Virus genome (UHGV): UHGV-1376660
Strand: one strand, 5' to 3'
DNA from: a virus
DNA length: 64,000 nt
A model generated the notes under the pieces. The model saw nothing but the letters and a program-made list of their open reading frames with translations, was not told the DNA's origin and did not search any database. The translations under genes and the position numbers were made by a program. Positions 2,989 through 48,150 of the stretch are shown here, in pieces (the stretch's first letter is position 1; each line of letters begins with the position of its first letter).

Positions 2989-3270
2989 TTAGTGGAGCAG
3001 ACCGACGTCGATGGTATCACCTGAGCCATCCACGCGGATCATCAGCATGGCGAAGGCATTTAATGGGTAGCCTGCGTGCCAATCCGGGAAGCGGTCATCG
3101 CGCATGAAGTCGGCAATGTCATAAACGCTGTCCTCAAAGCGGAAGAAGCGGGCATCACATTGTTCGTCCTGTTCAATGTGATCCATTTCCAGCTGCTCTT
3201 CCGGCGACAGGTCGAGCCAGGATTCCAGCCATACGTTTTCAGCTTTAGGGGAGATAGTGAAATCGGTCAT
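2989..3270 (-). CDS. hypothetical early protein (about 94 aa)
   Basis: ATG at 3270 with a GGAGG RBS. The track ORF extends to 3387 but would run through the class 1 motif at 3290-3323. Confidence 0.5.
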   Translation of the reverse strand: MTDFTISPKAENVWLESWLDLSPEEQLEMDHIEQDEQCDARFFRFEDSVYDIADFMRDDRFPDWHAGYPLNAFAMLMIRVDGSGDTIDVGLLH

Positions 3271-3395
3271 GTGCATATCCTCCATGCGTAAACATCTTGT
3301 TTTCTTGTTGGTGTAATTATCGCAAGCGGATAAGGCAAAAAACATTTTGTTATCGGGAATAAGAAAATGGCGCGGGATACGCGCCATTGCAGTGA

Positions 3396-3788
3396 TTAAG
3401 CGAATACGCTTTCCGGGATGTGGTTTTCCAGGGGAATGTTAGATGCGATACGCAGACCGTATTGCCCAAGCCAGGTAGAATTCATGTTGAGACCTGAGTC
3501 GAACACCTCCTCGGCCTGTACCATCATTTTTTCAAACATTTCTTTATTCCCTTCGCGGAAATAGGCAGCCAGTTTTAGCAAGACCGGATCTGACGCATTA
3601 CTGACGCTCTGGTAGCCTACCGAGTAAACTGCAGTGTCCCCTTCGCCGGTGCGAATTAAGGTGCTGGTGTGCACATCACCTCCGATAGTCTCGCGCAGAA
3701 CGACGGTTAATTTCGCGACTTTCTCGCCGGAGGCTTTCTCGGAAGCATAATGCAAATCCATCACAAGACTCTCACGTGAAACTGTCAT
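3396..3788 (-). CDS. hypothetical protein (131 aa)
   Basis: ATG at 3788 preceded by GGGAGAT. Confidence 0.5.
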   Translation of the reverse strand: MTVSRESLVMDLHYASEKASGEKVAKLTVVLRETIGGDVHTSTLIRTGEGDTAVYSVGYQSVSNASDPVLLKLAAYFREGNKEMFEKMMVQAEEVFDSGLNMNSTWLGQYGLRIASNIPLENHIPESVFA

Positions 3789-3915
3789 TTTTATCTCCCT
3801 ATAGTTGGTGGTTTTTATATTATTAAAATAGGTAGGCACTTACAATCCAAGCAAGCAAAAAGCCCCGAAGGATGGACGGGGCTGTCGTAGGGACGACTAA
3901 TCGCTTTTGCACATG

Positions 3916-4227
3916 TCAGGCTGTCGCCAGGAAAGAGGCACGCTGGATTTCTTGCTGGGCGACTTTGTTCGCCTCCAGTAACGCCTGTTCCAGCTCTCCT
4001 TCCGGCCAGATAATCTGTTTTGCCATCCACCCTTTCCCACTCTGGCGACGCACACTCATCACGTAACGCGCGCGGGAGCCATTGTCGAACGAGGCAATTG
4101 TCTCTTTAAACAGGCGAATGGCAGTACCGTTGGCGATGATATCGAGCAAAGTCAGTTGGCTCAGAACTGCTGGCTTCTCTTTACGTGGCTGTCCCGCGCT
4201 CAGTTTGGTAATCATCGCGTTTTTCAT
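3916..4227 (-). CDS. hypothetical protein (103 aa)
   Basis: ATG at 4227 with a GGAG RBS; class 1 motif at 4240-4273. Confidence 0.5.
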   Translation of the reverse strand: MKNAMITKLSAGQPRKEKPAVLSQLTLLDIIANGTAIRLFKETIASFDNGSRARYVMSVRRQSGKGWMAKQIIWPEGELEQALLEANKVAQQEIQRASFLATA

Positions 4228-4303
4228 AACTATCTCCGTAAACAACTTGTTTTCTTGTTGGTGTAAATAATACAGAGCTGAAAACGGGATAGAACCAATC
4301 TAT

Positions 4304-4618
4304 TCAGGGTGTACTCCATGAATAGGTGACTTCACTATCATTGGCGATACATGGAAATGGCACTTCAAAAACCCAGCCTTCTTCATCCAACTTTTTGTAC
4401 ATAAGGAGATCTTGCTTCATCAGGTATTCATTAAAGTGATAGTTGTCTCCGTCAGTCCCTTTCTTGTGCCAGACAATTTCGTCTCCCTTCAACTGAACAA
4501 GCGCAACGATATCTTCCTCAACCTCCGGCGCTGGCTGGCGGTCTTCCATATCGCGAATGACGAAACAGATTAAGAAACAGTCCCCGGTGTCAGGGTTGCT
4601 GGTGGTGTAGTAGTGCAT
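4304..4618 (-). CDS. hypothetical protein (104 aa)
   Basis: ATG at 4618 with a TGGAGAA RBS. Confidence 0.5.
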   Translation of the reverse strand: MHYYTTSNPDTGDCFLICFVIRDMEDRQPAPEVEEDIVALVQLKGDEIVWHKKGTDGDNYHFNEYLMKQDLLMYKKLDEEGWVFEVPFPCIANDSEVTYSWSTP

Positions 4619-4713
4619 TTGATTCTCCAGTTTTTAGTTTGGCCTCCAGTCTATTCGTCGTCGCATTTGGACAGGTCAAGTTTTTTTTGGCCACCGTGCT
4701 GGTGGCCCCACTC

Positions 4714-4932
4714 TTAATCTTCGTCGTCCGGGAACTCGATGTGTACCGCGTCCACCAGCTCCCGCTGTTCATCTTCACTGAGCAGATGCCAGATATCCTT
4801 CCCTTTGGGTGATTCCCCTTCAGCCGGGACGAAAGACCACAACTTGCGGTACAACTGCGGCCCCACAGCATCCAGACACTCAGCCAGGGAATCCACGCTC
4901 CACACCTCAACCATCACAGGCATCTTAATCAT
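4714..4932 (-). CDS. hypothetical acidic protein (73 aa)
   Basis: ATG at 4932 with a GAGGG RBS. Confidence 0.45.
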   Translation of the reverse strand: MIKMPVMVEVWSVDSLAECLDAVGPQLYRKLWSFVPAEGESPKGKDIWHLLSEDEQRELVDAVHIEFPDDED

Positions 4933-4942
4933 CTCTCCACCC

Positions 4943-5158
4943 TCACTTCGTTTCTGACGTTGTGCAGTTCCACGCGACGGACATTGGGTTGTCCTCGATA
5001 TGGAAATCAAACGTCCCTTCTCTGTATCCTTCAGAGATGAGCGTCGCCACGCGACCAGCTACATCCTGGGAACGGATAACGTCATCGAGGGAGATCTCAC
5101 ACTCGGGGGACTCTTCCTCGCCACAGAGGGTGATGCTGATATTCAGATGCTTGTACAT
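4943..5158 (-). CDS. hypothetical protein (about 71 aa)
   Basis: GGAGAA RBS before the ATG at 5158; class 1 motif at 5176-5209. Confidence 0.5.
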   Translation of the reverse strand: MYKHLNISITLCGEEESPECEISLDDVIRSQDVAGRVATLISEGYREGTFDFHIEDNPMSVAWNCTTSETK

Positions 5159-5300
5159 GTGTTTCTCCATTGTCTAAACATGTTGTTTTCTTGTTGGTGT
5201 TATTATCGCAATAAGAAAACGGGGAAAAAGAATTCCTTAAAGGCTGATGTGCTTGTGCCGATTTATTGCTATGTATGTATCTGGCTAACTCAGAGGGAAT

Positions 5301-5546
5301 GTGATGAGCACTAAAGACTACACAGACGGGTACTTCAGCATCGACGCCGAGAGAGGCGAGTTGCTACATGGCGGCATCGCTGTCGGACGCGTCATTTTGG
5401 TTAACGGTCAGATTTACACAGAGCTGGACGATACCAGTTCAAACGCACCTGTCGTCTCCGGCCCCTTCGGGACAAGAGAAGAGGCGCTCGATGATTTGTG
5501 GGACAACAGGGACGATGCGAATCAGGGCAGTGAGATTTTCGAATAA
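5301..5546 (+). CDS. hypothetical acidic protein (81 aa), plus strand
   Basis: GAGGG RBS 6 nt before the ATG. Confidence 0.45.
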   Translation: MMSTKDYTDGYFSIDAERGELLHGGIAVGRVILVNGQIYTELDDTSSNAPVVSGPFGTREEALDDLWDNRDDANQGSEIFE

Positions 5547-6650: not shown

Positions 6651-6978
6651 GGAGCGCTTCTGAGCGTGTCTGTTTTTGGGTGGTATCACGAGTCGTTTTT
6701 GACGTTTTGGTCGCAGGGAGATGGATTCTGGTGCGCAGGATTTTGGGTATAAGAGATGGCGTGCGAAAACATCAACTTTTAGACCAAATCAGGGGAAAGC
6801 GTTGACTTTACGTTGATGTGTTATTTATTTGTTTTCTTATGGGTGTAATTGGCTTAAATACCTTGTCACGCCTGGGCTGGAGTGGGCTGGAGTGGTGGGG
6901 GAAGTGGCGATCAACGGACTCTTATAGAAATCCTCAATTTGTGACCGCCAACGTCAACGGATTGCGCCTAATCCCTAT

Positions 6979-8181
6979 CTACTGGAAGTCGATGGAATCG
7001 CTTTCTATCATGCGATTTATCTCGGCCATTCTTTTCTCACTTTCTAAGTGCTTTGTAACGTACAAATCAGGCTGTAGTGGGGGAAGAGGTACAGGTAACA
7101 CAAGGCTATGTTTCACATAAGTATCTCTCATAGACTGCTCTACCTGCCATCCGTCAATTTCTTGGTAGTTAATCGGCCAGTTGTCCTGAAGTGCTTTGGT
7201 TGTATTGGCAATTGAAAACTTGAAGTAAGGGTTCAAGCCCATGAAGTTGCCGGCAAGCATGTCATCTACCTGTCGCACATTGGCAATGGCCGCAAACTTT
7301 GCAATGGCCAGATCAATATCCCAGCCTGAAACGAACAACAATAAGGCGGAAAATGCGAGTAGTTTTTCCTCACCATCAGCTCTGTCTTTTACCGATTTGT
7401 TTTGGAATTCAATGTAGTTATTGATAATAAATGCGTTCAACTGGAGGGTCTTTGCGTATTCTTCTCTCAATAACTCAGGATCTAACAGTGTGGGATTTTG
7501 CGTTTTATGGACAAAACTTCGCAGTTCTACGATGTTTTTGCGGTGGATATTTAGCCTATCCAAGCACTCCAAAGTAGGCTGATGTAGTCTAACGGTCTCT
7601 CTCAAAATCGCCTTTGCCCAATCGAAGCCAGGCACGATAGCCTGCATAGGATGGAACGGCAAAATGGTATCTCTGTGCCACGCATATGGGTAAGCAGGCA
7701 ACTCAATAATATAGGCCAACCAATCGATCTGCTCATGGCTCAATGTGATTTCGAATGTCGATTCGCGACGTTTGGCAAAAAACCACTGCCGCATATTTCG
7801 CATAGCTTCTTGTGTGAAGACATTTTCCTGAATGCCCGCACATACCATTTTTCTGATCACATGCGTAATTCTCGTGCGATCAGTGGTGAATCGCACTAGG
7901 TGCTGCCTGACCTCGTTCGAAAGTCGATCATCATAAAAATCGCAGGATGGATGGTGTGCGCTAACACCACTTCCCCCAATAAACCGGAAATGAGCTTTTT
8001 TGCGATAGTTGCCGACTCCTGAAGCTCGTACATAGGAACCGCCACCAGCCTCGCAAATAGGACAAACGACGTCTTCACGCGCAAAAGCATGTACGGTGTT
8101 ATTATCCAACCCCAACAGGGCCATGTATTGCTCTGGGTCGACTTCTTTTTGTAAGGCTTTTGAGTATGCTGTATCAGTCAC
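6979..8181 (-). CDS. hypothetical protein (400 aa) in an AT-rich island; CPIC...HHPSC cysteine/histidine cluster near the N-terminus
   Basis: Long ORF with locally low GC and no recognisable family. Confidence 0.6.
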   Translation of the reverse strand: MTDTAYSKALQKEVDPEQYMALLGLDNNTVHAFAREDVVCPICEAGGGSYVRASGVGNYRKKAHFRFIGGSGVSAHHPSCDFYDDRLSNEVRQHLVRFTTDRTRITHVIRKMVCAGIQENVFTQEAMRNMRQWFFAKRRESTFEITLSHEQIDWLAYIIELPAYPYAWHRDTILPFHPMQAIVPGFDWAKAILRETVRLHQPTLECLDRLNIHRKNIVELRSFVHKTQNPTLLDPELLREEYAKTLQLNAFIINNYIEFQNKSVKDRADGEEKLLAFSALLLFVSGWDIDLAIAKFAAIANVRQVDDMLAGNFMGLNPYFKFSIANTTKALQDNWPINYQEIDGWQVEQSMRDTYVKHSLVLPVPLPPLQPDLYVTKHLESEKRMAEINRMIESDSIDFQ

Positions 8182-8220
8182 TTGCGGTTCCTTGTAAGCG
8201 ATGCTTCGTATGGTTAACTG

Positions 8221-8406
8221 TCAATTAATTATTCCCCAAGACACAGCGTACACTTTCTCACGAACCTCTGTATCACTCCACCCCCACACTTTCGCCAGCC
8301 TATTTACATCGTCTGGCAAACTATAGAAAACCGTTGCTATTAGCAGCTCGTCTGGGGTCTTACCTAAATCCACCAACACATCATTAACCACGTCTTCAAC
8401 CGTCAT
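8221..8406 (-). CDS. hypothetical protein (61 aa)
   Basis: ATG at 8406; part of a tightly packed run of genes. Confidence 0.4.
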   Translation of the reverse strand: MTVEDVVNDVLVDLGKTPDELLIATVFYSLPDDVNRLAKVWGWSDTEVREKVYAVSWGIIN

Positions 8407-8415
8407 AGCTTTTTC

Positions 8416-8736
8416 TTACCAGTCCCAGGCTGGCAGGCCTTCCACCAGCTCGGCGTCGCAATCGAATTGCACCGCGTCAAAGCCAGCATCCAGTACCTTT
8501 TGAATGTTCTCGATGGTTTGCCATGTGACACCGTAATCACGCAGCTCTTCTTTCCAGTCGTTACCCCGCATACCTGCGCGGACAATCCATCCGTACTTCG
8601 TGCCGTGTACCCAATTCAGGCCGCGATCGGTTAGCGGGTCGAAACAGATATTAGGCAGACAGTCAGAGTCATGCTGTGTAATGTGGGCAGTGCTGATCAC
8701 CGCTGTCTTATACGATTCGGTTAGTTTCAGCATCAT
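8416..8736 (-). CDS. hypothetical protein (106 aa)
   Basis: ATG at 8736 overlaps the stop of the upstream gene as ATGA. Confidence 0.5.
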   Translation of the reverse strand: MMLKLTESYKTAVISTAHITQHDSDCLPNICFDPLTDRGLNWVHGTKYGWIVRAGMRGNDWKEELRDYGVTWQTIENIQKVLDAGFDAVQFDCDAELVEGLPAWDW

Positions 8737-9713: not shown

Positions 9714-9742
9714 TTTCACCACCTATAAAACAAATTGTTTAA

Positions 9743-9764
9743 GGCCACAACCAGTGGCCTTTTT
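9743..9764. terminator. bidirectional terminator GGCCACAACCAGTGGCC + T5
   Basis: Hairpin between the convergent 9510..9713(+) and 9774..10061(-) genes. Confidence 0.6.
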
Positions 9765-10377: not shown

Positions 10378-10920
10378 TTACTTATTACCTAATTTGTCCA
10401 ACTCTTTCAGCCCATCACGTACCGCGTTCACGATACGCTCCAGGTATTGGTATTTGGGGTTTGGCACCGTTGGCCAACCGGCATACCACGGATCGTCGCC
10501 AAACAGACTCAACAGTTCGTTACCGACACCGAAACAGCAGCAACTTTCTTTTACGTCATCAGCGTTTTCTGCCTCGTCCCACATATTGCGGGCCTGTTCT
10601 GCGTCGATTTCTCTCCCCCTGCGCAACTTTATGATTTCGGATTTGACGAAAAGCAGGTTTGCGTCGTTGTCATCGTCGACCGTACTCAGCAGTTGAGGGT
10701 CGAGGCAACCAATCAAATAATCGTTGCTCACTCTCTTAATAAACGTCTGCACATCGTCACCGCCCATCGCAAACCAGGCAGCAGTCCACGCTTTCCCATA
10801 GCAGGTGATGGTGACTCTTCCCTTGCCCGGCTCGTAGTTTTCAATCATTACGCGTACCGGGTCGAGACGCTCCAGATGAGTCAGCACAAAGGAAAGAACA
10901 TCTAATTTTTCGACCTTCAT
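10378..10920 (-). CDS. hypothetical protein (180 aa)
   Basis: ATG at 10920 with a GGGAGG RBS; ATGA overlap with the upstream hydrolase gene. Confidence 0.5.
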   Translation of the reverse strand: MKVEKLDVLSFVLTHLERLDPVRVMIENYEPGKGRVTITCYGKAWTAAWFAMGGDDVQTFIKRVSNDYLIGCLDPQLLSTVDDDNDANLLFVKSEIIKLRRGREIDAEQARNMWDEAENADDVKESCCCFGVGNELLSLFGDDPWYAGWPTVPNPKYQYLERIVNAVRDGLKELDKLGNK

Positions 10921-11558
10921 GCGACCTCCCACGCGTTCCAGATCAGCGCTTTGTGTTTTTCATAACGTTTGGTGTGTACCGGTTGCAGACTGGCAATGCC
11001 TTTCGTCACCATAGCCCGGGCGTGTATCAGCAACGAATGCTCTATGCCTTTTTTCTCCAGGTACTCGACAACACCGGCATCGGCACCAATCTCCTTGCCG
11101 TCAAATAGTACGGCCAGCATCAGCTCTTTCTCTGCGAGGTAGATGGCTGAGAACTCAGGATCGCAACTCACGATAGAAGAGGTGTTGTCCAGCAGGTCAG
11201 CCAGCTTGATCATGCGCGTCTGCATGTCGAGGCTTTGCTCCAGCTCCCGGACGTTGATGATGAAGCGCTGTATTCGATTGCCGTCTTCTGGTCTGGCAAT
11301 GTTGGTCAGAGCCAGAACCATTTCGGCTACGTGCTCACCGAAGTGCTCACGAACCATCTCTATGGTGACATGGGTATCTTCGACCACATCATGCAGCAGC
11401 GCCGCGATCTGCATCTCCACGGTTCCACCATGCCAGGCAACAATCTCGCGAACAGCAACCGGGTGGTTGATGTAGTCTTCACCGGTATATTTTCTTTTCT
11501 GGCCAACGCCGCCATGAGCGCCAGCGGCAAACATATGGGCTTTGGAAATACGGGACAT
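10917..11558 (-). CDS. small alarmone hydrolase: HD-domain (p)ppGpp hydrolase, SpoT/Mesh1-like
   Basis: Motif YINHPVAVREIV...IAALLHDVVEDT...FGEHVAEMV matches the RelA/SpoT hydrolase HD domain. ATG at 11558 with a GGAG RBS. Confidence 0.7.
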   Translation of the reverse strand: MSRISKAHMFAAGAHGGVGQKRKYTGEDYINHPVAVREIVAWHGGTVEMQIAALLHDVVEDTHVTIEMVREHFGEHVAEMVLALTNIARPEDGNRIQRFIINVRELEQSLDMQTRMIKLADLLDNTSSIVSCDPEFSAIYLAEKELMLAVLFDGKEIGADAGVVEYLEKKGIEHSLLIHARAMVTKGIASLQPVHTKRYEKHKALIWNAWEVA

Positions 11559-11628
11559 TCTTAACTCCGTTGTTTTCTGGATGCAGTTATTTTCGCAGAT
11601 AAGAAAAGGTAGAAAACAAATTGTTAAA

Positions 11629-11644
11629 GGCCACAATAGTGGCC
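11629..11644. terminator. hairpin GGCCACAATAGTGGCC
   Basis: GGCCAC..GTGGCC family; lies after the stop of 11650..12021. Confidence 0.45.
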
Positions 11645-11649
11645 TTCAT

Positions 11650-12021
11650 TTACTCAGCGATAAGCGATCCAATCATCGCCTGTAGCTCTCGTTCTTTTTC
11701 TTTGGCTACGCGGAGTAATTCGGCATCTACATGACGTTGCAGCTTATCCATTACGCGGAACGACGGACGGCGCATGACGCTCTCGTCGATGGCTTTGGTA
11801 TTCAAGCTAATAAGATGCCCGAAGTGGTTGAAGCCAGCCCCGACGAACACTTCATATAGCTGGGCATCGCGCTCAAACAGAGCGATCCCATTTCGCACCT
11901 CAAGCAGCGTTCCTTCCTCAATAAGCGTATCCAGCGCCTTATCCCAGACCGGACAAAAGCGATAATTGAAACCTTCCAGTAATGCTGTAAAAAACAGCGA
12001 AACGGCATTACCCAACTTCAT
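11650..12021 (-). CDS. hypothetical protein (123 aa)
   Basis: ATG at 12021 with an AAGGAAG RBS. Confidence 0.5.
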   Translation of the reverse strand: MKLGNAVSLFFTALLEGFNYRFCPVWDKALDTLIEEGTLLEVRNGIALFERDAQLYEVFVGAGFNHFGHLISLNTKAIDESVMRRPSFRVMDKLQRHVDAELLRVAKEKERELQAMIGSLIAE

Positions 12022-12023
12022 AG

Positions 12024-12305
12024 TTACTCTTCCTTACTCCTTGCTCTGTTAGCCTGCACTTCCTTAGCCAGCTCGTAGGTAATTTTGCACGGCACAATCA
12101 TCGCCCAGCCTTTTTCGTGGCTGTTAATCACCTGCTGAACATGGCCGTCTGTAATGGGCAGATCCGGCAACTGTTTAAAAACTTCCATCTGCTCATGGAT
12201 ATGCAGAAACCACCTTGCCAACTCCATCTGCTCGCCACGGGTGAGGGGATTATCCAGCGGAGACTTAACAAAAGCGGAGACTCGCTCGACAAGCAGATCA
12301 TTCAT
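12024..12305 (-). CDS. hypothetical protein (93 aa)
   Basis: ATG at 12305 overlaps the stop of the upstream gene as ATGA. Confidence 0.45.
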   Translation of the reverse strand: MNDLLVERVSAFVKSPLDNPLTRGEQMELARWFLHIHEQMEVFKQLPDLPITDGHVQQVINSHEKGWAMIVPCKITYELAKEVQANRARSKEE

Positions 12306-12991
12306 GCCGCGCACCTCTCTGCTTTCTCCTGCAATTCGCGAACGTACTCGACCAAAGAGCCACCTGGAGGGATCTGGCATTCCTCAACCAACTGGAAGTA
12401 GATGTCTGCGGCCGCGCGTGTGTTCGAGCCTTTATTCAGCTGTTCTTCGCGCAGCGCATCACGTTCGTTGATCAAACGGACGCACTCGCCGTTACGCTGA
12501 TCCACAACGGCCTCAAGTTCAGCGATGCGTTCGCCTGGCGTCTTACCTTCTTTACGCTGGATGGTGACGGTAAACTCGCCCATTTCAGGAACGTTGTACC
12601 CCAGCTCCAGGTAATTTCTGGCGCCGCTGCGGACGAACTCACCTGCGAACATGGTGGCGAACATCGCAGAGGCCATCTCTCCTTTGAAAAGCGACTCCAG
12701 ATCTAACGGAGTGCCGGCAGCCAGAGCCTCTTTTGCTGTGTCCATTGCGCCCATGAACCGGTCAAACTCATTGGCGCGTTTCTCAAGGTCTCTCCACTGC
12801 TGGCTCCAACGGCGTGCCAGATGTTCGATAAAAACCTGCGCCGATTCATCAAAGTTACCTTCGAACGTCACAAGCTCCTTGTCAATTTTGATGGTTCCGG
12901 CAGGCGTTCCTGCGTTCCCCTGTAGCACTAAATTAAATGGCAGCTTCGCCTGATTAACGCTGGCGAATGTAATTCTCGATTTTCCGCTCAT
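12302..12991 (-). CDS. hypothetical protein (229 aa)
   Basis: ATG at 12991 with an AGAGGTAAA RBS; class 2 palindrome at 13033-13053 upstream. Confidence 0.55.
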   Translation of the reverse strand: MSGKSRITFASVNQAKLPFNLVLQGNAGTPAGTIKIDKELVTFEGNFDESAQVFIEHLARRWSQQWRDLEKRANEFDRFMGAMDTAKEALAAGTPLDLESLFKGEMASAMFATMFAGEFVRSGARNYLELGYNVPEMGEFTVTIQRKEGKTPGERIAELEAVVDQRNGECVRLINERDALREEQLNKGSNTRAAADIYFQLVEECQIPPGGSLVEYVRELQEKAERCAA

Positions 12992-13049: not shown

Positions 13050-14735
13050 TCATTTTACGCGTTTGAAAACGTATACGCTGACAGTGATTCCGGTGTCTTC
13101 AAACTCGTCAGTAAACGACTTCCCTTTGGCATAAACGTAATTATCCAGCGTCATCCAGTTCAGAACTGGCGCATCACCCGGCAGTACTGCCACCAGTCGC
13201 CCGCCGACTTTAAGATGCTCCAGCGCGGCCAGCGTATGCTCTCTGTGACGGCCAAGAGAGTAGGGCGGGTTCATGACGATTTTGTCGAACTGATAGCCTG
13301 CGTTGTCCTCAGACCACTTCATGAAGTCACAGCAGACCGTATTTGTGTACCCCTTGCCAAGCAGGATATCAGCGAAGAGAGGTGCGACTTCTATGCAGGT
13401 AACGTCTTCCGGATTGGCGTCGATGCAGGCCAACAGATCTCCGCGCCCGGCTTCAGGCTCCAGCAGCTTCTCACCTGGCTTCAGCTCGATGGCTCTGGCA
13501 ACGTACTCCGCTATCAAACGTGGGGTAGGGTAGAACTGGTGTGATTTTGTATCCGGTATTAAGCCGGTGGCCACAATCGTATTGAGCGTATGGCCGATCT
13601 CATACGGGAACTGCCAGTGCTTTTTCTCCTGCACGCCGCCAATGAAGTTCAGTGTGCGCTCAAGCTCTTCCACCTGTGACTTCTGTAGGTTGGAATCAGA
13701 GAAGTACCAGACGCCTTTGTCTTTGCTGAATCGCCCGTCGCGCAGCGCGGTACGAACCGGCTCGGAGATCGTCTTCTGGATTAACCCGAACTCTTTTGGT
13801 GCCCGTGTTTTGGGTGCAGTACGGCATGGCGCCGGGATTGCTGCAGGCATACTGTAAGCCAGCACCTCATTCAGCTTCCAGGCCACGTCAGGATGTATTT
13901 CAAAGTGAACGTTGCCGTTCTTGAACATCTTCACGCGCATCAGGTTTCCGTCGACATTCATCCAGTCACCGGTCTGGCAGTCGTTTGCCCGGTACGCAGC
14001 TGATAGCATCTCAGTTGTGCGGTTGATGGTGATGAACTCTTTGTGTGCGAAGAAATGAAGCATGACGCGCAGGTCGTCGATGTAGTCCTCTTTCCGGTAG
14101 TTCACGCTGACGCTGTCCCGCCAGAACTCGGAAATGCAGTTGGCGATGATCAGACGCTCGCTAAAGCCGTTCGTCTTATTGGTCTTGTGGGCAGGACTCA
14201 GCGCTTTAAACAAGCCATACACGCGCTCAGAGAGATATTTGTGCCTGTCATTCAGCAGATTGAGCATCGTTGGGATGACCGTTTCTGCTTTAAACTCCGG
14301 CACACCAACGAACTCCTTAACCTTCATCTGGTAGCCGGTTCTGTCAGTCCTGATGGTCTCCTGCTTGCCCTCGATAAACTGCTCACGCCACTCGTCGCGG
14401 CGGGAAGCTGGCATGATCAGCAGAACGTTTGTCATATCCGTGACCTTCTTCCAGTACTCGGCCCAGATATTCTGTTTCACCCATTCAAGGTCGACCTTGT
14501 CCAGCCAGGCTCTGTTAAAGCGTGTGCGCTCGTCATCCGGCCGGTGGTTGAGTCGCAGCAGGCGGTTAATCATGTTGTGGCGTTCGTCGCCATAAACGAA
14601 GTCGTGAACCTGATGCATGAATGCGATCTCTTTCTCGCACTCGGCCACAATTTCGTGGATGACGTTCATTTCCTGCCGGTAGTCGATATCAGTGTTTGGG
14701 GTGATAGCGTCAATGATGGAAAGGGCTGTATTCAT
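13050..14735 (-). CDS. DNA methyltransferase (C-terminal N6A/N4C NPPY-type domain) with a roughly 370 aa N-terminal domain of unknown function
   Basis: C-terminal EPEAGRGDL (motif I) and IVMNPPY (motif IV). ATG at 14735; the track start at 14753 is TTG. Confidence 0.65.
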   Translation of the reverse strand: MNTALSIIDAITPNTDIDYRQEMNVIHEIVAECEKEIAFMHQVHDFVYGDERHNMINRLLRLNHRPDDERTRFNRAWLDKVDLEWVKQNIWAEYWKKVTDMTNVLLIMPASRRDEWREQFIEGKQETIRTDRTGYQMKVKEFVGVPEFKAETVIPTMLNLLNDRHKYLSERVYGLFKALSPAHKTNKTNGFSERLIIANCISEFWRDSVSVNYRKEDYIDDLRVMLHFFAHKEFITINRTTEMLSAAYRANDCQTGDWMNVDGNLMRVKMFKNGNVHFEIHPDVAWKLNEVLAYSMPAAIPAPCRTAPKTRAPKEFGLIQKTISEPVRTALRDGRFSKDKGVWYFSDSNLQKSQVEELERTLNFIGGVQEKKHWQFPYEIGHTLNTIVATGLIPDTKSHQFYPTPRLIAEYVARAIELKPGEKLLEPEAGRGDLLACIDANPEDVTCIEVAPLFADILLGKGYTNTVCCDFMKWSEDNAGYQFDKIVMNPPYSLGRHREHTLAALEHLKVGGRLVAVLPGDAPVLNWMTLDNYVYAKGKSFTDEFEDTGITVSVYVFKRVK

Positions 14736-24577: not shown

Positions 24578-25447
24578 TTATTTTTTTACCATCTCGTAAA
24601 GAGATGAGGTTTTCGCCTTCTCAACAAAGCGAGTCAGATCCACATCGCTGTAGGTTGGGGATTTGAGGATCTTGCCATCAGAAACTCTGAAGCCAATCAT
24701 CATGTCAGTCCCTTCAGCGTGGCGGAAGCCCAGATCTCCCTTGTCGTATTTGCAATTCTCTACCGCCACACGACGCTCTTCGGCGTCAGCCGGCCACAGC
24801 TTGGTCATGTTGGAACGATGGATTTCTGCCACCAGCTCAACAATATCGATACCGAGAAAATCAGCCAGGCGGTAGGTCATCATGCAGGCAACGTAGATTT
24901 TATTCATCACGCGGCGCAGCTCCTGCACCAATTCGGAATCGCTAATCGGCTTCGCTTCGAGTTTGTCAGCCAGCGCATTCAGCATTAATGCAGCTTCTTT
25001 TGCTTCTTCAAACGGGATAGCCATGTCGTCAAAGACCGTGTTGCCTGGAACCATGATGGTGTGGATGAAGCGATCAACACTCTGCTCTTGGGTGTAGTAG
25101 CTCATGCCTGTAGAGATACCGCCTTTGATGGCCACCATTGTGCCGACGCCCACGTAAAGGAAGTCAGCCATCGCATCCAGCAGCGCCGTCATGTCCCCGT
25201 TTTTAGCTGCCGGGATGCCCTCGGTAACAGCTTCTTCGTGGATCAGCTTGGCACGCAGACGCAGTAGTGCAGGATCTGGAATGGCACGGCGTGGGTGCTG
25301 AAACAGTGTGTGGAACTGGTCAACCATCAGGTAGATGCTTTCCGTTGCCTTGCCAAAACCGGGATTCAACTCGTAAGGCTCTGGCTTAAATCCCACGAGT
25401 TTGTCTGCGGCAAGTTTCAGATGATCGGTCAGTTTCGTAAATTTCAT
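24578..25447 (-). CDS. possible MazG/HisE-like all-alpha NTP pyrophosphohydrolase (289 aa)
   Basis: HEEAVTE ... DAMADFLYV resembles the EExxE...ExxD pattern; ATG at 25447 with an AAGGAAAG RBS. Confidence 0.35.
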   Translation of the reverse strand: MKFTKLTDHLKLAADKLVGFKPEPYELNPGFGKATESIYLMVDQFHTLFQHPRRAIPDPALLRLRAKLIHEEAVTEGIPAAKNGDMTALLDAMADFLYVGVGTMVAIKGGISTGMSYYTQEQSVDRFIHTIMVPGNTVFDDMAIPFEEAKEAALMLNALADKLEAKPISDSELVQELRRVMNKIYVACMMTYRLADFLGIDIVELVAEIHRSNMTKLWPADAEERRVAVENCKYDKGDLGFRHAEGTDMMIGFRVSDGKILKSPTYSDVDLTRFVEKAKTSSLYEMVKK

Positions 25448-44178: not shown

Positions 44179-44610
44179 TTAACGGGGAGAGTGGAAACGT
44201 TCGGCGCCCAAACGTTCAATCTCCACGATAGCCATTTTGGACGCCTGGACAATCATGTCGCGGCGGTGAGAGAAGGCGGCTACAGCGTGCTTGTACAGAT
44301 CTGCAATGTGCCGGGCATCGTCGAGTTTCTGGCGCTTTGCGAGGTATTGCGGGTTGGTTCTAACCTTTGCCTCCAGTACGGACTCATTAAACTTAATGCC
44401 GTTCATACTCAGGTTCTTACGCTCATTGTCGTAGATTTTCGCCTCAATCGCATCGAGGGAGAGTTTTGCATCTGCGACCTCGCGTTCTGCCCGCGCCAGC
44501 TTAGAGCCGTACTCCATCAACAGGCGCGGTTGCTGACGCCAGACTTCCTCAAGATTGTCGCGGTCGAACTCCAGATCGGACATGATTTTTTCGTAGATAT
44601 CGGTGCTCAT
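44179..44610 (-). CDS. possible UvsY-like recombination mediator (143 aa)
   Basis: Size, position next to the ssb and recA-like genes, and loose similarity of helical segments to T4 UvsY, from memory. Confidence 0.3.
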   Translation of the reverse strand: MSTDIYEKIMSDLEFDRDNLEEVWRQQPRLLMEYGSKLARAEREVADAKLSLDAIEAKIYDNERKNLSMNGIKFNESVLEAKVRTNPQYLAKRQKLDDARHIADLYKHAVAAFSHRRDMIVQASKMAIVEIERLGAERFHSPR

Positions 44611-44864
44611 GGTGTTAATTACCTGCTTATTTATATATATCAATTTTATCATGGTGGGAGCAGGCAGTGGAGATTATGACACGATGAAATGGAGGTTATG
44701 AGATAGGCAAGCCAGTGAAAAATCGGGTGGTTCTGGTACTCTATGCGCCGTTAAAAGCTGGCCGTAGACAGCGTGCGACAACAGGGCGGGGACATGGACG
44801 GATGAATTTCATTCGCCGTTGACAGATGTCAACGCTGGTAATAGTATAATATTGTCGGAGGCGA

Positions 44865-45089
44865 ATGAAGAAACATTCGAACAAGCACATTCAAGCGGCC
44901 ATTGAATATGCTTTAGACCAAGGCTGGGTTTGGGTTGCACCGGGCGATTCTGCTCACTGCTTTTGCAGGTTGCGTTGTGGCAATCCAGAAGGTGAACACC
45001 GAGATCACCAAATGAGTGTATGGTCGACGCCGAAAAGTGCTGAAAACCATGCCAAGCGAATCATAAGCACCGTAAAACACTGCAAGTGA
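44865..45089 (+). CDS. small basic protein (74 aa), possibly HicA/YcfA-like toxin fold
   Basis: GW...G.S.H..F......H and a C-terminal K-rich segment resemble HicA. Own sigma70-like promoter (TTGACA...TATAAT at about 44800-44840). Confidence 0.3.
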   Translation: MKKHSNKHIQAAIEYALDQGWVWVAPGDSAHCFCRLRCGNPEGEHRDHQMSVWSTPKSAENHAKRIISTVKHCK

Positions 45090-45168
45090 TTTTGCCCGGT
45101 AAGGAGTGGCGACAACCACTCCTTACCGAATATAAGAGAATACTCTGAATACTAAACGAAGAGGTACT

Positions 45169-45732
45169 ATGGCGCTTTATAACTTCACTCTGACACTCTC
45201 AGGCGTAACGTATGAGACCGAAGGACTGGAAGACGCGCTGTACGAAAGCGGCTGTGACGATGCGCTGATTTGCGCATATGGAAACTCCGTCTATGTTGAG
45301 TTCGACCGCGAAGCTGAATCGCTGGATGCAGCTATTGCATCAGCGGTCGACAATATCGAATCAGCCGGAATCGGCGCTATTGTTGAATCTGTCGACTCTG
45401 CCCTTGTAGGCTTGAGCGACATTGCAGAAATAACAGAAATGTCTCGCCAGGCGATTGCGATGCTGAAAGATGGCACTCGTGGTAGCGGAGACTTCCCTTG
45501 CCCTATCCAACGAATCAAAGGCCAATCTCCACTTTGGGATTGGGCTGATGTAGCCGAATGGCTACTAAAGAACGGTCGATTAAAAGAAGACAGCAACTTG
45601 GTAAATAACGCTCGTGTGCTGAGTAAATGGAATCTTGCCTTACGTGCAAGCGCTTCAAAAGATTTTCAAGAAGTTGAGTCGATCGCGGTAGCTCTTATCG
45701 CACGTCGACGTCATCACGCCGAATGCGCATGA
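45169..45732 (+). CDS. hypothetical protein (187 aa) co-transcribed with the 44865..45089 gene; possible antitoxin or partner
   Basis: GAAGAGG RBS; the terminator at 45735-45757 ends the two-gene unit. Confidence 0.45.
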   Translation: MALYNFTLTLSGVTYETEGLEDALYESGCDDALICAYGNSVYVEFDREAESLDAAIASAVDNIESAGIGAIVESVDSALVGLSDIAEITEMSRQAIAMLKDGTRGSGDFPCPIQRIKGQSPLWDWADVAEWLLKNGRLKEDSNLVNNARVLSKWNLALRASASKDFQEVESIAVALIARRRHHAECA

Positions 45733-45734
45733 AA

Positions 45735-45757
45735 AAACCCGCCAATCGGCGGGTTTT
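45735..45757. terminator. bidirectional terminator AAACCCGCCAATCGGCGGGTTT
   Basis: Perfect hairpin with A and T runs on both sides. Confidence 0.7.
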
Positions 45758-45761
45758 TGCT

Positions 45762-46205
45762 TTATGCGACTTTCTTACCAAAAATGTTGGATAGCGTGAC
45801 TCTGGTCTGGCGTTTCAGCCTGTACTGCCTCACATCGCCAATCTTGTTCACTTCCATAAACTCTTTGGCCACCTTCAGCACCAGCCGATTGCGGAACACT
45901 TTGAACGCCTCCAGCTGTTCCTCTGGGTTATCCGATTCGTAGATCTCCAGCAGATACTGGCACGCCTTCGGATCTTGCGTTTTAAGCGCCAGCGCTCTGG
46001 CACATTTACGCAAACGACTGACTTTGTCGGCACCATCCAGCCCGGCGAACGCCAGCGCCAGATCTAACGTGACCGGACAGTCGATGATTTCCCAGAACTG
46101 CGACCGCATGGTGGCCGCAACTGCTTTATCCTGAAAATCCGCTGGGATAGCCGCCAGCGCTTGTGCAATCTTCTGTGCCTCGTTCATGGTGTTCTCTTTA
46201 TTCAT
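45762..46205 (-). CDS. hypothetical protein (147 aa)
   Basis: Long ORF in the operon. Confidence 0.5.
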   Translation of the reverse strand: MNKENTMNEAQKIAQALAAIPADFQDKAVAATMRSQFWEIIDCPVTLDLALAFAGLDGADKVSRLRKCARALALKTQDPKACQYLLEIYESDNPEEQLEAFKVFRNRLVLKVAKEFMEVNKIGDVRQYRLKRQTRVTLSNIFGKKVA

Positions 46206-47371
46206 TTGCTAATAGTCTCCGCTACCTCTGCCAGAATTGCTTCCAGCTTTTCGCCTTCTTCTGGGCGAAAGTACAAAATGTTTGGGTTAAATCCGTAGAA
46301 AACGGTCACATCCAGCTCCGGCAGATACTCTTTGCGTCCAACCAGGTCGGATGGTTTGTTCTTGTTGTTGAAGAGTGACGTCGCCCGGCTGCCACACGTC
46401 AGCACATAGGTCGGACGCACCAGATTGACCTCTTCACGCATAAAGTCGGTGAACTGGCCGATCTCGTCTTTGGTGTAGTCCTTCTCTTTGTCCTTCACCT
46501 TTTTGCACACGCCGGTGACGTAGAGATCGCCCATGCGCAGATCGCCTGCAGTAAGCAACTTCGCTTTAAAGTCGTCGTAGCCGTTCTCCATGAAGTAACC
46601 GGTACGCCCATCATTGCCGTTCGCGTTGTCCAGAATGACCATGATTTTCGGCTTAATGCCAATGCTTGGGCGAATCAGGTCGTCTCCCAGACCCATTTCG
46701 GCCGCCATGCGAGTCATCAGTACATTCACCTCGGCAGAGCGCTTAGGGTTCATCTCGAACGGTCGAGAGGCTTTTACAGCGTCGATCACCAGATTGCCCA
46801 TCAGCTCTGCCTGGTCGCGCAGACGTTCCGGGTCTGTCGCTGGCAGACTGCCAGGCTCAATCGATGCGAACGCACCTACTTTTTGCAGTGACTCGCGTAC
46901 CCGGCTGTTACATGCACGCTTCTCGACCGATTCCTCGAATTGCGCCAGCGATTCGAATTTTCCGCCAACTTTCTCACGTGCTCTCATGATGGCCTGGCAT
47001 CCGTTCTCAGAGCAGCCTTTCACAGCAGAGAATGGCGCATACAGAACCTGGCTGCCGTCTTCTAGCGTGCGGATCTCAATTCGGTTAGATGACACGTTAA
47101 CGTCTGGTGGCAATATGCGAATACCATAGGTCAGCGCATCCTTAACCAGCCCTTGGTGCTTATCCTCGCCCAGAATGGTGAGAGCTGCAGCGAAGAATTC
47201 AGCAGGGTAGTGCGTCTTTAGCCACATAGACTGATAGCTGATCAGCGAGTAGGCAACGGAGTGTGATTTGTTGAAGGCATACGCGCCGGATTTCTCAAAC
47301 ATATTCCAGATTTCTTCGGCTCGTTCGTGCGTCAGGCCATTACTCTCTTCAACAACACCGGTAATTTTCAT
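46202..47371 (-). CDS. dnaE: DNA polymerase III alpha subunit, C-terminal fragment (from the FNKSHS region to the OB fold)
   Basis: ERAEEIWNMFEKSGAYAFNKSHSVAYSLISYQSMWLKTHYP matches the DnaE fingers region. The ATG overlaps the HNH gene stop as ATGA. Confidence 0.8.
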   Translation of the reverse strand: MKITGVVEESNGLTHERAEEIWNMFEKSGAYAFNKSHSVAYSLISYQSMWLKTHYPAEFFAAALTILGEDKHQGLVKDALTYGIRILPPDVNVSSNRIEIRTLEDGSQVLYAPFSAVKGCSENGCQAIMRAREKVGGKFESLAQFEESVEKRACNSRVRESLQKVGAFASIEPGSLPATDPERLRDQAELMGNLVIDAVKASRPFEMNPKRSAEVNVLMTRMAAEMGLGDDLIRPSIGIKPKIMVILDNANGNDGRTGYFMENGYDDFKAKLLTAGDLRMGDLYVTGVCKKVKDKEKDYTKDEIGQFTDFMREEVNLVRPTYVLTCGSRATSLFNNKNKPSDLVGRKEYLPELDVTVFYGFNPNILYFRPEEGEKLEAILAEVAETISK

Positions 47372-48102
47372 GCAGTCACCTCATCAATCTTCATGAACTC
47401 ATACCCATTGGACACCAGCCAGTCCCGCTGGCGCTCCCAGCTCCATACCTCTTCACGCATTTCGCTATGCAGACGAATGTGAGCGTCTTCTGGAAGTGCT
47501 ACCAGATTCCCAGGGGCGTTATCTACCGTGTCGCGGTTAAGGTGGTGGACATGTTCATCGTCACGTAGCTCCCGACCGAGATGTTCTTTCGCTATCAACC
47601 GATGAACGTATTCGTATTGCGAAACGCCATTGTTACCAACCAGCTGCATCATGTAGCCGTTGGTTTTTATGATGACGCCACCTTTGTAGTTGTTCGCTTC
47701 TTCTCCGGTCTTTCCGCGTTTGGCAGCCGCCAGCTTTTCCTTCGTCTCTAGGCGGATTGTTCTGCCGGTCAGCTTTTTCGAAACGGTGGCCACTCGCTCA
47801 TCGGTATCAGCACGCAGCCCTGCATTCCACGAGGTTTTCCCATACATAGGGTTGCCAGCGCCAGCCCGGGCTTCGGAGAGTCGCTTTATGCGTTCGTCAT
47901 TATTTTTGTTTTTGCCACGATTCCAGGCTGGGGTAGCGGAGATCCGCGCGTTTCCGCGCCTGATCCCCCATTTGGCTAATAAGCGATCGATATTTGCCTT
48001 GCTGCAACCAGCTTCGGCGGCAATGTCTTCTTTTCTCATCAGGTCAACCATGTAACGCTGGCGTAACCATTCTTCTGTGATTTTGTACTTCGTACCCGGC
48101 AT
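47368..48102 (-). CDS. free-standing HNH homing endonuclease with NUMOD-like repeats
   Basis: EYVHRLIAKEHLGR...HVHHLNRDTVDNAPGNL (HNH) and GNPMYGKTSWNAG (NUMOD3-like). Class 1 motif at 48117-48148 upstream. Confidence 0.75.
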   Translation of the reverse strand: MPGTKYKITEEWLRQRYMVDLMRKEDIAAEAGCSKANIDRLLAKWGIRRGNARISATPAWNRGKNKNNDERIKRLSEARAGAGNPMYGKTSWNAGLRADTDERVATVSKKLTGRTIRLETKEKLAAAKRGKTGEEANNYKGGVIIKTNGYMMQLVGNNGVSQYEYVHRLIAKEHLGRELRDDEHVHHLNRDTVDNAPGNLVALPEDAHIRLHSEMREEVWSWERQRDWLVSNGYEFMKIDEVTA

Positions 48103-48116
48103 TTCAAAAACTCACT

Positions 48117-48148
48117 AAACAAATTGTTTTCTTATCTTATAAATTAAC
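48117..48148 (-). promoter_or_regulatory. class 1 element upstream of the HNH endonuclease gene inside dnaE
   Basis: AAACAAATTGTTTTCTTATCTTATAAATTAAC. Confidence 0.5.
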
Positions 48149-48150
48149 TC

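Follow-up and report, generated by a model that had tools for sequence, protein, structure and literature searches.

An orphan PaSpo-type small alarmone hydrolase gene in an SSU5/pHCM2-type phage-plasmid

Results

The hydrolase gene and the element that carries it

The subject of this analysis is a 64-kb stretch of DNA from the virus genome UHGV-1376660 (hereafter, the window) and one gene within it, an intact minus-strand open reading frame (ORF) that runs from an ATG at position 11558 to a TGA stop at 10919-10917 and encodes 213 residues. The product belongs to the PaSpo subfamily of small alarmone hydrolases (SAHs), single-domain members of the RelA/SpoT homologue (RSH) family. The gene and its ribosome-binding site are located as follows.

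10917..11558, minus strand: gene for a PaSpo-type small alarmone hydrolase with one RelA/SpoT HD domain; 213 aa plus stop (from the ORF, Pfam, PHROGs, identity to SSU5_099, and AlphaFold2/Foldseek)
11565..11568, minus strand: Shine-Dalgarno sequence GGAG, six bases 5' of the ATG at 11558, by direct reading of the minus strand

A first-pass annotation of this DNA had described a stand-alone protein of 214 aa; the protein does stand alone, while the figure of 214 counts the stop codon. A mechanical ORF list of the same frame contained an alternative TTG start at 11636 (239 aa). The TTG start was set aside and the 213-aa start adopted, because the ATG at 11558 is supported by the Shine-Dalgarno spacing, by the starts annotated in two relatives (Salmonella phage SSU5 and plasmid NZ_CP149263), and by where the proteins of 39 homologues begin.

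Judged by its homologies, the window is an SSU5/pHCM2-type phage-plasmid. The 5 kb surrounding the gene are 94.7% identical in nucleotide sequence to SSU5, and 97.5-98.9% identical to non-mobilizable Salmonella plasmids of ~106-110 kb, including the S. Typhi CT18 plasmid NC_003385 (pHCM2 type). The closest plasmid examined, NZ_CP149263 (98-99% identical), is typed IncFIB. SSU5 itself is presented as an archetypal phage-plasmid in PMC7969092. The window codes for a Rep3-type initiator, an integrase-family recombinase, NrdAB, thymidylate synthase, dihydrofolate reductase (DHFR), DnaE, and methyltransferases; the SSU5-type family's genes for head, tail, and lysis fall outside it. The earlier description of the hydrolase as phage-plasmid-encoded is thus borne out by homology to SSU5/pHCM2-type elements, and not by structural genes in the window. 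An Rfam scan of the whole window matched no family.

Domain content, catalytic residues, and fold

The match of the protein to the RSH hydrolase family is far beyond chance. Pfam HD_4 (PF13328) was found at residues 8-135 (E=6.8e-19, 68.6 bits versus a gathering score of 27.2), with generic HD (PF01966) as the second Pfam match, and in PHROGs the protein was assigned to phrog_990, "metal-dependent phosphohydrolase" (2.7e-52). The NCBIfam model spoT_relA (TIGR00691, E=8.5e-25) was matched only over profile positions 1-126 of 687, and the E. coli-type SpoT model (NF008303) only over positions 22-153 of 702, i.e., over their N-terminal hydrolase parts. A sequence search of the PDB returned only RSH hydrolases (Rel(Mtb), MESH1, Lmo0812, SpoT, RelSeq, a P. 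aeruginosa SAH, and a (p)ppApp hydrolase), and the HP, HD, ED, and KLAD..N motifs of the PaSpo-type protein line up with those of Rel(Mtb), MESH1, and Lmo0812. No synthetase (RelA_SpoT, PF04607), TGS, or ACT domain was found by Pfam in the 213 residues. By domain content, the protein is therefore classed as an SAH.

In an alignment of 40 homologues (43-89% identity), residues R22, Y24, Y29, H32, P33, H56, E60, D61, T62, R98, K118, D121, and N125 were invariant, and K21, K23, and D57 were conserved in at least 90% of the sequences. Their counterparts in MESH1 and Rel bind the metal, form the catalytic ED pair, or contact the phosphate as basic residues (roles: Hogg et al. 2004, Sun et al. 2010). 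In the numbering of MESH1, the metal ligands are presumably H35, H61, D62, and D122 and the catalytic residues E65 and D66 (Sun et al. 2010), with H32, H56-D57, D121, and E60-D61 as the equivalents here, an assignment that fits the alignment.

An AlphaFold2 model built from the 40-homologue alignment had a mean pLDDT of 97.1 and a pTM of 0.92, and was an all-helical, single compact domain of 12 helices. When the model was compared with the PDB using Foldseek, the top 50 matches were all RSH hydrolase domains (MESH1, bacterial SAHs, the (p)ppApp hydrolase, and the N-terminal parts of Rel, SpoT, and RelA), with a probability of 1.0 and no more than 30% identity. Profile, catalytic residues, and fold thus uphold both earlier statements about the domain content, namely that the HD motifs match RelA/SpoT hydrolase domains and that a synthetase domain is lacking.

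The best structural match was metazoan MESH1 (PDB 3NR1, 5VXA, 9CHY; Drosophila 3NQW), with TM-scores of 0.63 (query) and 0.75 (target) and a probability of 1.0; at the sequence level (E=9e-14) the R-K, HP, HD, ED, and D..N motifs of the two proteins are aligned. MESH1 differs in being eukaryotic, in its additional activity as an NADPH phosphatase, in its length of ~179 aa, and in being without the ~18-residue insertion (at ~155-172) and the longer C-terminal helix that set the phage-plasmid clade apart from relatives of 165-190 aa. Chromosomal SAHs (P. aeruginosa 6YVC and 6Z3N/O, C. glutamicum RelH 7QOC/D, Leptospira 7QOE, and the Bacteroides (p)ppApp hydrolase 7SMG) share the fold (TM to target 0.6-0.76) and the catalytic motifs with PaSpo, but are only 21-28% identical to it and are host-encoded housekeeping or self-protection enzymes. 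Their preference for ppGpp or ppApp varies by member, and that of PaSpo is not readable from sequence. Long RSHs (SpoT, Rel, RelSeq) have a homologous HD domain (TIGR00691 1-126, NF008303 22-153), while PaSpo is without their synthetase, TGS, helical, ZFD, and ACT/RRM domains. Because these domains are missing, regulation linked to the ribosome or to the acyl carrier protein is inapplicable to PaSpo.

The structural comparison also bears on a different kind of substrate. The top Foldseek matches are complexes of MESH1 with NADPH and with 3'-phosphoadenosine-5'-phosphosulphate (PAPS), and MESH1 has NADPH phosphatase activity (bioRxiv 10.1101/2021.04.30.441581), so that the physiological substrate of the phage-plasmid enzyme might be a 3'-phosphorylated metabolite other than an alarmone, and its effect a rewiring of host redox or sulphur metabolism. 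We regard this as very unlikely: the identity to MESH1 is only 28-29%, the genomic context holds no pointer to redox or sulphur metabolism, and the phenotype demonstrated for the SSU5 orthologue is neutralisation of toxic small alarmone synthetases (PMC7229694).

Identity with the SSU5 protein and its published activity

The window protein and SSU5_099 (YP_006906731.1) are identical at 210 of 213 positions (99%); the three substitutions (R132C, N179H, A212V) all lie outside conserved motifs. A family hidden Markov model, built from 40 members and searched against the window and the complete SSU5 genome, gave exactly one match in each, and no other RSH protein is listed in the annotation of SSU5 or NZ_CP149263. 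Since SSU5 holds only one such gene, SSU5_099 is the protein that Jimmy et al. 2020 list as "Salmonella phage SSU5 SAH (PaSpo subfamily)", and the near-identity to this named representative places the window protein in the same subfamily. The two genes agree in position and orientation between homologues of SSU5_098 and SSU5_100, in the hairpin upstream, and in the 4-nt overlap downstream, and each is the sole RSH hydrolase gene of its element. The loci differ beyond the downstream 180-aa gene, where the window has genes of 102 and 95 aa and SSU5 has a 232-aa LprI-family gene.

The gene had thus been correctly recognised in the first-pass annotation, but its product has been named, cloned, and functionally assayed since 2020. 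Upon co-expression in E. coli, cloned PaSpo(SSU5) neutralised five out of five toxic small alarmone synthetases (toxSAS), namely CapRel, PhRel2, FaRel2, PhRel, and FaRel (Jimmy et al. 2020, PNAS, PMC7229694, Table 1). The counteraction of toxSAS that had been proposed for the window protein is in agreement with this result, and toxSAS rescue, one of three tests suggested along with that proposal, is already published for the SSU5 orthologue. The protein has since come into routine laboratory use for detoxifying such enzymes. Leaky PaSpo expression is enough for detoxification of FaRel2 (bioRxiv 10.1101/2024.07.05.602228), and co-expression of PaSpo permits over-expression and purification of CapRel-SJ46 (PMC9712102) and was likewise used for PhRel2 (bioRxiv 10.1101/2021.04.30.441581). 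SAHs are frequent in phages, and their use as a bypass of alarmone-based abortive infection was also proposed in 2020 (PMC7229694, including its Discussion).

Four of the five toxins neutralised by PaSpo make no alarmones; instead, they pyrophosphorylate tRNA at its 3'-CCA end (bioRxiv 10.1101/2021.04.30.441581). The term "alarmone hydrolase" is therefore too narrow for the task of the protein in vivo. Comparable breadth is known for other single-domain RSH hydrolases. ATfaRel, a type IV antitoxin of the PbcSpo subfamily from Cellulomonas marina, and the SAH of phage PVP-SE1 neutralise all toxSAS assayed through degradation of the toxic product, and catalysis is required, as the D54A substitution abolishes neutralisation (PMC7229694). 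In vitro, ATfaRel restores aminoacylation of pyrophosphorylated tRNA (bioRxiv 10.1101/2021.04.30.441581). MESH1 both neutralises toxSAS (PMC7229694) and repairs pyrophosphorylated tRNA (bioRxiv 10.1101/2021.04.30.441581). Unlike PaSpo, ATfaRel and the PVP-SE1 protein belong to another SAH subfamily, and ATfaRel is encoded in an operon with the toxin FaRel, whereas the window gene is without a cognate synthetase. From the conserved residues and the in vivo neutralisation of FaRel by the SSU5 protein, we infer that PaSpo would act as a 3'-pyrophosphohydrolase on (p)ppGpp and/or (p)ppApp.

Neighbouring genes and orphan status

The hydrolase gene lies towards the distal end of a very long minus-strand array that consists of replication and nucleotide-metabolism genes, two methyltransferase genes, an Ant/Rha anti-repressor gene, and then small "ea-like" accessory genes. 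The features around it are the following.

9724..9761, no strand assigned: second hairpin copy, which the convergent ydfZ gene shares as a bidirectional terminator, at the distal end of the hydrolase-containing block (terminator scan, pattern search)
10378..10920, minus strand: 180-aa gene, function unassigned, downstream of the hydrolase gene; so annotated in NZ_CP149263 and SSU5; phrog_3451, 8.5e-90
11625..11648, minus strand: terminator-like hairpin AAGGCCAC-N4-GTGGCCTT with a 10-pair stem and a T-rich tract, between the 123-aa gene and the hydrolase gene (terminator scan)
11650..12021, minus strand: 123-aa gene, function unassigned, SSU5_098 homologue, upstream of the hydrolase gene with the hairpin between them; phrog_16975
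12302-12991, minus strand: 229-aa Ead/Ea22-like gene; residues 1-103 match phrog_3451 positions 1-103
13050..14735, minus strand: DUF4942/DNA methyltransferase gene; Pfam DUF4942, 2e-21; phrog_6263, "DNA methyltransferase"

The ATG of the 180-aa gene overlaps the stop codon of the hydrolase gene by 4 nt (ATGA at 10920-10917), which makes co-translation of the two genes probable. Such an overlap resembles the layout of toxin-antitoxin modules, and SAHs of the PbcSpo subfamily do act as antitoxins (PMC7229694). On this ground, the hydrolase could be a type IV antitoxin that guards the host from a synthetase encoded by the same element, as ATfaRel of C. marina does. The reading is extremely improbable, and already essentially refuted by the following results. 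The 180-aa gene has no Pfam or PADLOC match, and hence no synthetase match; PADLOC likewise gave no match for the hydrolase or for seven neighbouring genes. Homologues of the 180-aa gene occur in ~50 unrelated phages, in most of which no hydrolase gene lies under or beside the match, and the gene is absent beside the 55-58%-identical hydrolases of diverged Klebsiella phage-plasmids, where the hydrolase gene is followed by the methyltransferase gene instead. These observations also rule out the 180-aa protein as an obligate hydrolase partner.

A cis-encoded toxSAS partner was ruled out as well. No RelA_SpoT-type synthetase is present in the full annotations of SSU5 and NZ_CP149263, and none was found by a Pfam scan of window-specific ORFs of at least 150 aa, which were delimited by mapping the window against NZ_CP149263. 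Since the element encodes no synthetase, the hydrolase is classed as an orphan SAH rather than as a type IV antitoxin.

The DUF4942 methyltransferase gene directly adjoins the 55-58%-identical hydrolase gene in K. oxytoca pCAV1335-118 (locus 3001-5422) and K. pneumoniae pfekpn2511-2 (locus 3001-5426), two diverged phage-plasmids of other replicon types in which the hydrolase gene is immediately upstream; in SSU5-type elements, the hydrolase gene is 1.5 kb downstream of the methyltransferase gene. The linkage of the two genes has thus been retained despite rearrangement of gene order.

The 287 positions of phrog_3451 are split over the two genes that flank the hydrolase gene, with part 1-103 in the Ead/Ea22-like gene and part 105-281 in the 180-aa gene. 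As the two halves form one protein in some phages, mosaic recombination appears to have taken place in this accessory region.

A duplicated hairpin around the hydrolase-containing block

The hairpin element (AAGGCCAC-N4-5-GTGGCCTT; spans 9724-9761 and 11610-11648) is present in exactly two copies in the window. The copies are direct repeats that have 27 nt of flank in common (9724-9750 and 11610-11636, 93% identical, 1886 bp apart), and bracket a block made up of the SAH, 180-aa, 102-aa, and 95-aa genes. Two copies are also present in SSU5 (within the 11-kb region examined) and one in phage Cyrano, which at the equivalent locus is without the SAH and 180-aa genes. The repeats look like the scar of a cassette exchange by recombination at terminators, which would fit the mosaicism of the region.

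Distribution, selection, and decay

The ratio of nonsynonymous to synonymous substitution rates (dN/dS) of the hydrolase gene was 0.09 in the comparison with SSU5, 0.12 in that with the closest plasmid, and 0.055 when a Klebsiella orthologue of 84.5% identity was used, values that point to purifying selection. Full-length orthologues (at least 80% identity) were found in ~169 plasmids of Salmonella, Enterobacter, E. coli, Klebsiella, and Citrobacter; the neighbouring region was matched by 529 plasmids, and the hydrolase gene is thus common but not universal in this group. More distant SAHs were found in 263 phage records, many of them from jumbo phages.

The versions of the gene carried by several relatives are clearly inactivated. 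In one, the N-terminus of a P-loop ATPase is fused in frame to the part that follows the HD motif, and in another the N-terminus of the upstream Ead/Ea22-like gene is fused in frame to residue ~75; the HD motif is deleted in both. Truncations occur at residues 118 and 139, the latter on 139 contigs, and an active-site variant, D57G, is present among related phage-plasmids. Taken together, the local details that are new here are the orphan status of the hydrolase, a mosaic block flanked by a duplicated terminator hairpin, and purifying selection that goes along with decay in some relatives.

Proposed mechanism and alternative roles

The gene is very probably that of PaSpo, an orphan SAH carried as an accessory gene by SSU5/pHCM2-type phage-plasmids, which counters toxSAS by destroying their products. 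The protein would be a metal-dependent HD-domain hydrolase, with Mn2+ as the likely metal by analogy with the family, and its likely substrates would be (p)ppGpp, (p)ppApp, and pyrophosphorylated tRNA CCA ends, from each of which the 3'-pyrophosphate would be removed. The product would be destroyed with the toxin left unbound, and the growth arrest caused by toxSAS, for example by CapRel-type abortive-infection defences, would be cancelled. The (p)ppGpp level would probably be lowered too, which would keep translation and nucleotide supply open for the element. These considerations suggest that in its native phage-plasmid the gene would serve in counter-defence or against the stringent response, and its location in an accessory early-gene array beside genes for DNA methyltransferases and the Ant/Rha anti-repressor is in line with this.

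Several points weigh against this interpretation. The gene is dispensable: phage Cyrano is one of the relatives without it, and in several others it is truncated, fused, or changed to D57G (P0008, P0009, P0010, P0012, P0015). The functional data on PaSpo all come from heterologous over-expression. Removal of the tRNA 3'-pyrophosphate was shown with MESH1 and ATfaRel, and not with PaSpo (bioRxiv 10.1101/2021.04.30.441581); a later statement that PaSpo performs this reaction cites that earlier work (bioRxiv 10.1101/2024.07.05.602228). In the literature, we found neither in vitro hydrolysis or substrate data for PaSpo itself nor any biochemical or structural characterisation of its subfamily (the nearest solved structure is <30% identical), and no knockout, infection, or expression-timing experiment with SSU5 or pHCM2. 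No publication that ties pHCM2 or phage-plasmids to ppGpp or other alarmones was found, and the phage-plasmid papers searched omit the gene. Finally, a terminator-like hairpin sits directly upstream of the hydrolase gene, and a promoter scan between this hairpin and the ATG revealed nothing above background and no good sigma-70 promoter.

The native role could instead lie mainly in control of the stringent response, a possibility that the first-pass annotation had raised as well. Host (p)ppGpp would be degraded while the phage replicates lytically or the plasmid becomes established, which would keep transcription, translation, and dNTP synthesis going, and toxSAS neutralisation would be a side effect of a broad substrate range. 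The conserved residues are those of (p)ppGpp hydrolases, and PaSpo neutralises FaRel, which accumulates both ppGpp and ppApp (PMC7229694). The gene is on the same strand as, and at the end of, an array with genes for NrdAB, thymidylate synthase, DHFR, and a MazG-like pyrophosphohydrolase; moreover, the stringent response is able to hold back phages, and phages have other means of countering it (2026, PMC13483052). We nevertheless consider such a role doubtful. The action of four of the five neutralised toxins does not involve alarmones (bioRxiv 10.1101/2021.04.30.441581), and the absence or decay of the gene in many similar phage-plasmids indicates that it is unneeded for basic replication. 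Measurements of ppGpp in SSU5-infected or pHCM2-carrying cells were not found in the literature.

The interpretation of PaSpo as a destroyer of toxSAS products can also be carried further, to a speculative form that we think improbable. PaSpo would then serve counter-defence through RNA repair, not as an alarmone enzyme, and would be carried on an exchangeable cassette bounded by the duplicated hairpins. By stripping the 3'-pyrophosphate from tRNA CCA ends, it would let SSU5-type phage-plasmids establish themselves and replicate in Enterobacteriaceae with CapRel-type fused toxSAS, which are often encoded by rival prophages or phage-plasmids such as SJ46, and the insertion and C-terminal helix specific to the clade would form a tRNA-binding surface.

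The result supports the recognition of a functional class from raw sequence and adds little new biology, since the ability of phage SAHs, this protein included, to neutralise toxic alarmone synthetases universally has already been published. SSU5-type phage-plasmids are widespread in clinical Salmonella (including S. Typhi, as pHCM2), Klebsiella, Enterobacter, and E. coli. If PaSpo does protect against CapRel-like defences or dampen (p)ppGpp in lysogens, this could matter for elements that also carry resistance genes, both for their host range and for their persistence.

Other features of the window

Between nrdB and the thymidylate synthase gene, the minus strand carries a MazG-like gene of the phosphoribosyl-ATP pyrophosphohydrolase family (24578-25447; PRA-PH, 3.2e-09), whose SSU5 annotation reads "nucleotide pyrophosphohydrolase". 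An action on (p)ppGpp has been suggested for phage MazG proteins. The element may thus have two enzymes that touch hyperphosphorylated nucleotides, this MazG-like protein and the hydrolase.

The gene for the DNA polymerase III alpha subunit, dnaE (46202-50514, minus strand), occupies one ORF of 1172 aa in the closest plasmid and is split here into ORFs of 787 and 389 aa. The insertion responsible (47289-48328, 1040 bp) carries a 244-aa HNH/NUMOD3 homing-endonuclease gene (47368-48102), and Rfam found no group I intron at this place. The arrangement looks like a free-standing homing endonuclease that splits an essential replication gene.

Several stretches of the window are not shared with the closest plasmid. 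Those at 58708-59418 (minus strand), 56584-57738, 44602-45761, and 6960-8449 hold, besides a gene for a PhoH-like ATPase (1e-45), three ORFs (207, 187, and 400 aa) for which no significant Pfam family was found. In SSU5, the place of the 400-aa ORF is taken by SSU5_107 (1200 nt), a gene of similar size. A further stretch of 4.6 kb that is absent from the closest plasmid encodes, on the plus strand, a 1084-aa autotransporter with a beta-domain, an autochaperone, and passenger repeats (60070-63324), a surface-protein or virulence-type cargo of the phage-plasmid. Around the same place, the closest plasmid has a Tn3-family transposon.

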